DNA of 887 nucleotides from Escherichia coli (GCF_003334315.1 NZ_QOWR01000128.1); one strand, 5' to 3'; shown: positions 1 through 887, numbered from the stretch's first letter. Made by a program: numbers and translations. The notes: a model not told the origin generated them from the sequence alone.

Positions 1-887
1 CCCTCAGCATGTGGCCGGATAACCGTATCGCCCGTGACGCGCACTATCTTTACCGGTATGACCGTCACGGCAGGCTGACAGAGAAAACCGACCTCATCCC
101 GGAAGGGGTTATCCGCACGGATGATGAGCGGACTCACCGGTACCATTACGACAGTCAGCACCGGCTGGTGCACTACACGCGGACACAATATGAAGAGCCG
201 CTGGTCGAAAGTCGCTATCTTTACGACCCGCTGGGCCGCAGGGTGGCAAAACGGGTATGGCGGCGTGAACGGGACCTGACGGGCTGGATGTCGCTGTCAC
301 GGAAACCGCAAGTGACCTGGTACGGCTGGGACGGCGACCGGCTGACCACAATACAGAACGACAGAACCCGCATCCAGACGATTTATCAGCCGGGGAGCTT
401 CACGCCACTCATCAGAGTTGAAACCGCCACCGGTGAGCTGGCGAAAACGCAGCGCCGCAGCCTGGCGGATACCCTTCAGCAGTCCGGCGGCGAAGACGGT
501 GGCAGTGTGGTGTTCCCGCCGGTGCTGGTGCAGATGCTCGACCGGCTGGAAAGTGAAATCCTGGCTGACCGGGTGAGTGAGGAAAGCCGCCGCTGGCTGG
601 CATCGTGCGGCCTGACGGTGGAGCAGATGCAAAACCAGATGGACCCGGTGTACACGCCGGCGCGAAAAATCCACCTGTACCACTGCGACCATCGCGGCCT
701 GCCGCTGGCGCTTGTCAGCACGGAAGGGGCAACAGAATGGTGCGCAGAATACGATGAATGGGGCAACCTGCTGAATGAAGAGAACCCGCATCAGCTGCAG
801 CAGCTTATCCGCCTGCCGGGGCAGCAGTATGATGAGGAGTCCGGCCTGTATTACAACCGCCACCGCTATTATGACCCGCTGCAGGGG
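1..887 (+). CDS. rhs: Rhs-family (YD-repeat) core protein, internal fragment from the C-terminal part of the conserved core; partial at both ends (codon phase begins at base 3)
   Basis: Manual translation of frame 3 gives 295 codons with no stop: [295 protein letters not shown]. Frames 1 and 2 hit stops within the first 80 bases (tga at 76..78, taa at 20..22). Recurrent YxYDxxGRL-type YD repeats and the terminal [15 protein letters not shown] segment are hallmarks of Rhs core proteins. The paralog (rhsA/B/C/D-like) cannot be assigned from this conserved core, so the symbol is family-level only. Confidence 0.93.
51..83 (+). other. YD-repeat unit (protein-level motif) [11 protein letters not shown]
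   Basis: Codons 17-27 of frame 3 read [11 protein letters not shown], a near-perfect match to the Rhs/YD consensus YxYDxxGRL(T/I). Confidence 0.8.
141..176 (+). other. YD-repeat unit (protein-level motif) [12 protein letters not shown]
   Basis: Codons 47-58 read [12 protein letters not shown]; YxYD followed by a basic residue and Leu, a degenerate YD repeat. Confidence 0.7.
216..251 (+). other. YD-repeat unit (protein-level motif) [12 protein letters not shown]
   Basis: Codons 72-83 read [12 protein letters not shown]; YxYDxxGR core of the YD repeat. Confidence 0.75.
318..353 (+). other. YD-repeat unit (protein-level motif, degenerate) [12 protein letters not shown]
   Basis: Codons 106-117 read [12 protein letters not shown]; aromatic-x-aromatic-D-x-x-R-L-T pattern with W in place of Y. 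Confidence 0.6.
678..716 (+). other. YD-repeat unit (protein-level motif, degenerate) [13 protein letters not shown]
   Basis: Codons 226-238 read [13 protein letters not shown]; a YxxDxxG(L) variant of the repeat. Confidence 0.55.
747..773 (+). other. YD-repeat unit (protein-level motif, degenerate) EYDEWGNLL
   Basis: Codons 249-257 read E-Y-D-E-W-G-N-L-L; YDxxGxL core. Confidence 0.55.
828..887 (+). other. N-terminal part of the Rhs repeat-associated core domain ([20 protein letters not shown]), truncated by the window end
   Basis: Codons 276-295 read [20 protein letters not shown]. The G-L-Y-Y-x-x-x-R-Y-Y-D-P-x-x-G segment is the conserved opening of the domain that, in Rhs and TcC-type proteins, continues into the DPxGL motif and the autoproteolytic site separating core from variable tip. 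The rest of the domain is beyond base 887. Confidence 0.8.

Follow-up and report, generated by a model that had tools for sequence, protein, structure and literature searches.

The 887-nucleotide stretch of Escherichia coli DNA analysed here, referred to below as the window, is in all probability an internal segment of the core of an rhsA/B/C-type Rhs polymorphic-toxin gene, the closest counterpart being the rhsC-locus allele located between ybfA and ybfC. Among the repeated genes of E. coli, Rhs cores belong to the best known. All 887 bases are found with 100% identity in four complete E. coli chromosomes (strains STEC276, J2, 2017-19-1CC, and HCP30S3_I2), in every case inside an intact coding sequence of 4,200 nt annotated as "RHS element core protein". 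This gene is placed between ybfA, which lies beside the kdp operon, and ybfC, that is, in the position occupied by rhsC in K-12. The window comprises nucleotides 2759–3645 of the gene; base 3 of the window opens codon 921 of the annotated coding sequence, and the register of the annotation agrees with that of the open frame described below. Compared with WP_240992365.1, the RHS element core protein of this rhsC-locus gene, nucleotide identity is 100% in the same frame over residues 921–1215, with no difference detected. The gene is already known, and RefSeq contains an annotation of exactly this sequence. The original prediction, made from the bases alone, had placed the window in a well-known family without novelty, and the identical annotated genes of the four genomes agree with it. 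The features of the window are collected in Table 1.

Table 1. Features of the 887-nucleotide window, with positions counted from its first base.
Feature	Position	Strand	Basis or remark
Internal Rhs core coding fragment, without start or stop	3..887	+	Codons 921-1215 of WP_240992365.1 (1,399 aa)
YD-repeat segment, residues 1-143, last stretch of the beta-hairpin shell wall	3..431	+	TIGR01643; Yx[YW]D motifs
Non-repeat segment, residues 144-214 (protein 1064-1134), probably helical	432..644	+	Inside the RHS_core model
Pfam 'RHS protein' motif PF03527, residues 223-259	669..779	+	i-E 8.9e-15
First half of the Rhs repeat-associated core domain (TIGR03696, 1-42 of 76)	750..884	+	37.8 bits
188-aa antisense ORF, frame -1 (in register with the sense codons)	297..863	-	Not a gene
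96-aa antisense ORF, frame -2	476..766	-	Not a gene
80-aa antisense ORF, frame -3	109..351	-	Not a gene
63-aa antisense ORF, frame -3	412..603	-	Not a gene

Coding strand and antisense frames

Frame 3 of the + strand is open throughout the window, as had been claimed, without a single stop in its 295 codons (bases 3–887) in the six-frame translation; the remaining five frames contain 7, 17, 1, 16, and 8 stops. Such openness is rare in randomized sequences: any of the six frames was fully open in 19 of 5,000 dinucleotide-preserving shuffles, and the chance of one frame being open over 295 codons from base composition alone is about 7e-5. The window has a G+C content of 61.1%, which rises to 74% at the third codon positions of + frame 3. 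The comparison with rhsD points to the same frame. The ungapped alignment of the two sequences contains 204 substitutions, which fall on the first, second, and third codon positions of + frame 3 in the proportion 42/34/128, and the codons changed in this frame comprise 94 synonymous and 61 nonsynonymous cases. This distribution indicates that purifying selection is confined to + frame 3.

The list of open reading frames supplied with the window contains nine ORFs of at least 20 amino acids. It had been noted beforehand that this list held minus-strand ORFs only and lacked the real frame, probably for want of a start and a stop inside the window. The four ORFs of at least 60 amino acids are indeed all on the minus strand, and the real gene is absent from the list because ORFs running off either end are left out, according to the tool's own description.

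The same prediction regarded the four minus-strand ORFs as spurious, and several lines of evidence uphold this judgement. None of them matches a family in NCBIfam, PHROGs, or PADLOC, and the Pfam search of the two longest (188 and 96 aa) found nothing. Their substitutions relative to rhsD are not of the coding type: the changed codons are 15 synonymous and 140 nonsynonymous in frame -1, and 7 and 151, respectively, in frame -3, which holds the 80- and 63-aa ORFs. The frame of the 96-aa ORF (-2) shows a higher "synonymous" count (78 against 86), because the third position of its codons falls on that of the sense codons; this frame holds 16 stops. The ORFs are not kept in the paralogues either. 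The 188-aa ORF meets a stop at codon 8 in rhsD; the 96-aa ORF is interrupted by one stop in K-12 rhsC, three in rhsD, and two in rhsE; the TTG start of the 80-aa ORF is lost in five paralogues (rhsB, rhsC, ybfO, rhsD, and rhsE); and the 63-aa ORF has lost both its ATG start and its stop in rhsD and rhsE.

The longest of these ORFs deserves separate consideration as a possible real antisense gene of 188 codons overlapping rhs. Frame -1 has a single stop in 295 codons of the window and is nearly open in all the K-12 paralogues, with 0–1 stops each, even in the 23%-diverged rhsD (1) and in rhsE (0), and the GTG start of the ORF is conserved. This openness is nonetheless accounted for by codon usage: frame -1 is nearly open because a stop there needs a sense TTA, CTA, or TCA codon, and these are nearly unused in this G+C-rich gene (0, 0, and 1 times). 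Stop-free runs of at least 188 codons arise in 18% of the shuffles, and the ORF is not called by the RefSeq annotation among the matches listed. Together with its early stop in rhsD, its substitution pattern, and the lack of matches in the four libraries (NCBIfam, Pfam, PHROGs, and PADLOC), these data make an antisense gene at this place extremely improbable. The four minus-strand ORFs are by-products of G+C-rich codon usage and not genes.

Other scans of the window returned little. Promoter-like sites numbered zero and terminator-like sites one, both within the expectation from shuffled sequences, and no Chi site (GCTGGTGG) is present in the window. When both strands were scanned against Rfam at E <= 1, the one hit was a trypanosomatid snoRNA, which at 19.3 bits (gathering threshold 47, E = 0.21) is at chance level. 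The internal repeats, a single 15-nt direct pair and two inverted pairs that are imperfect, were treated as chance occurrences.

Family assignment and anatomy of the fragment

The translation of + frame 3 aligns along its entire length (residues 1–295) with positions 935–1229 of the 1,261 positions of the NCBIfam equivalog model NF041261 (RHS_core), without indels, at 629.6 bits and E = 1.1e-188. The curated cut-off of this model, 2,000 bits, is out of reach for a fragment covering 23% of it; for the complete protein encoded by the identical gene, the score is 2,638.8 bits, over positions 1–1261. The assignment to the Rhs core, which is what the prediction had proposed for this frame, is further supported by TIGR01643 (YD_repeat_2x), found in two stretches of the window at 32 bits against a cut-off of 15.8, and by the Pfam 'RHS protein' motif, which is aligned over positions 1–37 of the 38 of its model. 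Two models had been named beforehand as suitable checks. TIGR03696 (Rhs_assc_core) exceeds its cut-off of 32.5 bits in the window, and the complete domain is found at residues 1170–1247 of the identical full-length protein with 80.5 bits. The other, PF05593 (RHS_repeat), is weak within the window (i-E of 0.06 and 0.1) and significant elsewhere in the full-length protein; here the family is confirmed by the other models and not by RHS_repeat itself. At the N-terminus of the full-length protein, DUF6531 is recognized (3.1e-18), while the Pfam PAAR_motif is insignificant (E = 0.18). The sense fragment has no match in PHROGs or PADLOC. Nothing contradicts the assignment to the Rhs family.

It is important to note that the fragment is not uniform. 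The prediction had described it as a textbook YD-repeat/Rhs core segment, and it is Rhs core throughout; residues 144–214, about a quarter of the fragment, are not YD repeat. Three segments can be distinguished (Table 1). The first contains Yx[YW]D motifs at fragment residues 17, 47, 72, and 107, and aligns to residues 864–984 of Tse5 and to the Rhs core of Salmonella bongori. Solved type VI secretion system Rhs effectors matched by sequence are Pseudomonas aeruginosa Tse5 (8cp6), S. bongori Rhs (8qjb-d), Pseudomonas protegens RhsA (7q97), Acinetobacter baumannii Tse15 (8uxt), and Photorhabdus laumondii Rhs1/Tre23 (7pq5), and the similarity to them is significant at residues 3–143 and 215–293.

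The middle segment, of 71 residues, lacks an alignable counterpart in these solved effectors, Tse5 having 26 residues at the same place, and a search with residues 144–214 alone retrieved no PDB sequence at E <= 10. It is also the least conserved part of the fragment: relative to RhsD and RhsE, which form a second Rhs core subfamily, the rhsA–C type is merely 68% identical in this segment and 81–84% identical in the flanks. An AlphaFold2 model of the 295-aa fragment, built on a 6-sequence paralogue alignment, is poor (mean pLDDT 43.1, pTM 0.31). It displays beta-hairpins at residues 1–140 and helices at residues 154–213, with local pLDDT up to about 70. The model is too poor for a fold search, and its secondary-structure trend is tentative; according to it, residues 144–214 are probably helical. 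The segment of about 71 residues might constitute a functionally distinct module of the enterobacterial Rhs core, for example a toxin tether lining the lumen or an external docking surface, a speculative and rather unlikely idea at present.

Residues 215–295 can be aligned with the C-terminal ends of Tse5, P. protegens RhsA, Tse15, and P. laumondii Rhs1 (residues 1245–1307 of the latter). The beta-strip of the barrel extends to residue 1262 in P. laumondii Rhs1, and the embedded C-terminal plug that follows it (1263–1357) is the aspartyl protease (PMC8636562). By this alignment, the window stops within the plug and does not reach the catalytic residues. The sequences DPIGL (1221–1225) and DSMGL (1243–1247) of the identical gene are located 22 residues apart; they start 6 and 28 residues, respectively, after the last codon of the window and are thus both outside it. 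The strict form PxxxxDPxGL is not found in the identical gene, where position -5 is Arg.

Paralogues, locus arrangement, and origin of the window

Sequences of this type are widespread in the species. Matches of at least 95% identity occur in 3,889 of 5,426 complete E. coli genomes, nearly every genome having any match, and they amount to 19,816 places; the median per genome is 5 and the highest number is 15. A genome thus has several core copies that are nearly identical, which is the property of a rearrangement hot spot, and so it is in K-12, whose copies are 98–99% identical. Of all these places, three belong to plasmids instead of chromosomes, and there are eleven records in which the best match reaches merely 60–90% identity.

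Within K-12, the closest relatives are RhsA, RhsB, RhsC, and the orphan ybfO, which differ from the window by 8–18 substitutions and no indels (98.0–99.1% DNA and 98–100% protein identity). The individual values for DNA and protein are 99.1% and 99% for rhsA, 98.3% and 99% for rhsB, 98.0% and 98% for rhsC, and 98.9% and approximately 100% (1 difference) for ybfO. RhsD and RhsE are collinear with the window and ungapped, with the same order of segments including the non-repeat middle, at 77% DNA identity (77.4% for rhsD and 77.5% for rhsE) and 79% protein identity each. The comparison with rhsA to rhsD, which had also been put forward as a check, accordingly finds relatives in all four genes and assigns the window to the rhsA/B/C type.

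The gene of the identical genomes has a particular relation to the K-12 locus. Its nucleotides 1–3738 align with K-12 rhsC at 96.5%, and from nucleotide 2695 through the end of ybfC it aligns with the K-12 ybfO–ybfC segment at 99.3%, with 14 differences of which all but one fall before nucleotide 3175. By these alignments, the whole window belongs to the core portion present in two copies at the rhsC locus of K-12. The first base of the window corresponds to position 8213 of the K-12 rhsC locus (L003), where ybfO is annotated from 8221 and A+T-rich non-rhs sequence occupies 8100–8148, upstream of the orphan homology. An in-frame ATG at bases 9–11 of the + strand of the window coincides with the RefSeq start of ybfO, a truncated orphan pseudogene in K-12; in the full-length gene the same codon is an internal Met, residue 923.

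The 887 bases alone cannot separate a full-length rhs gene from an orphan fragment such as ybfO; in the latter case the window would belong to a truncated 3′ core piece with a displaced toxin tip, a silent cassette. The resemblance to ybfO is close: the orphan holds the whole window at 98.9% and is nearer to it than the main gene rhsC of K-12 (98.0%), its homology starts just 64 nt upstream of window base 1, its annotated start codon is contained in the window, and the rhsA and rhsD loci likewise hold partial downstream copies of the stretch. Against an orphan stands the fact that all four 100%-identical matches are inside intact 4,200-nt genes, while ybfO differs from the window at 10 positions. 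The exact matches thus favour a full-length gene as the source, and a truncated orphan appears quite unlikely. The prediction had spoken of the main gene, and this wording is backed by the exact matches in intact genes, although the window in itself, with ybfO 98.9% identical, cannot prove it. Even less can be said for a decaying rhs pseudogene remnant with no present function. K-12 does contain rhs pseudogenes and fragments (rhsE, ybfO, ylbH, and yibJ), and remnants of ISAs1 transposases lie downstream of the rhs locus; the frame is nevertheless intact over 295 codons, the whole gene of 1,399 codons is intact in the identical genomes, and the substitution pattern is that of purifying selection. 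Decay is therefore very improbable, and the segment of an intact rhsC-locus core gene remains the preferred reading.

Partial downstream copies of the 3′ part of the window are present at two other K-12 loci, namely yibJ at the rhsA locus (L005 7198–7581; 94.8% over 385 nt) and ylbH at the rhsD locus (L004 6986–7135; 83% over 150 nt). The orphan fragments begin at differing depths in the core.

The arrangement of the rhsC locus differs between K-12 and the exact-match genomes. K-12 has the order rhsC–ybfB–ybfO–ybfC, whereas the genomes with an identical match have one gene running into a tip of the ybfO type, followed directly by ybfC; the rhsC tip of K-12 and ybfB are absent from them (L001 5243–10008 in the exact-match locus versus L003 3584–10220 in K-12). 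The exact-match arrangement would be either the state before C-terminal displacement or the product of recombination between main gene and orphan. The arrangement fits the model of C-terminal displacement (PMC2935791) and also main/orphan recombination, which has been demonstrated in Salmonella (PMC3967940).

In base composition, the identical gene goes from a G+C-rich conserved core to a variable tip that is A+T-rich, and a small gene lies next downstream. From 0.623 in the core, the G+C content falls to 0.429 in the tip and to 0.367 in ybfC, compared with 0.535–0.556 in the flanking genes, and there is an overlap of 4 nt between ybfC and the rhs stop. The tip of K-12 rhsC differs from that of the exact-match allele. 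For the latter (residues 1216–1399; L001 8888–9439), Pfam gives nothing at a limit as loose as E <= 10, and YbfC (L001 9439–10005) has no family in NCBIfam. The tip and YbfC are a presumed toxin/immunity pair, YbfC being given this role from its position only. In strain HCP30S3_I2, ybfC is annotated as frameshifted next to an intact upstream rhs gene (L009 5439–6009), which could mean either that the presumed immunity gene has been lost or that the assembly contains an error. Further downstream of the rhs locus, remnants of transposases of the ISAs1 family (H-repeat), ybfQ, ybfL, and ybfD, are found in both K-12 and the matching strains (L003 10446–12854; L001 10234–12639), the middle copy differing among strains.

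Proposed working and significance

Rhs effectors have been described as cocoons with plugs and aspartyl autocleavage (PMC8636562, PMC8765631), in which the DPxGL motif demarcates variable tips paired with an immunity gene; orphan modules also exist (PMC3150448). By analogy with the solved homologues, the YD repeats encoded in the first part of the window would wind into a closed cocoon enclosing the variable C-terminal toxin. The Rhs-associated core domain, whose first half the window encodes, would spiral inward, plug one end of the cocoon, and carry the aspartyl autoprotease. This autoprotease would free the toxin at the DPxGL boundary, six codons past the end of the window, and the matching immunity protein would be the product of the small downstream gene ybfC. 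At the level of the genome, the stretch is one of about five near-identical copies and hence a substrate for homologous recombination, both among the rhs copies and of main genes with orphan fragments.

For the Rhs family the new biology provided by this window is small, and its value is mainly methodological. Short windows are unable to separate rhs main genes from orphan fragments. A list of ORFs that drops end-truncated frames hides the real gene and leaves the antisense artefacts alone visible. In G+C-rich genes, the antisense frame in register with the sense codons is open for compositional reasons, which yields long antisense ORFs.
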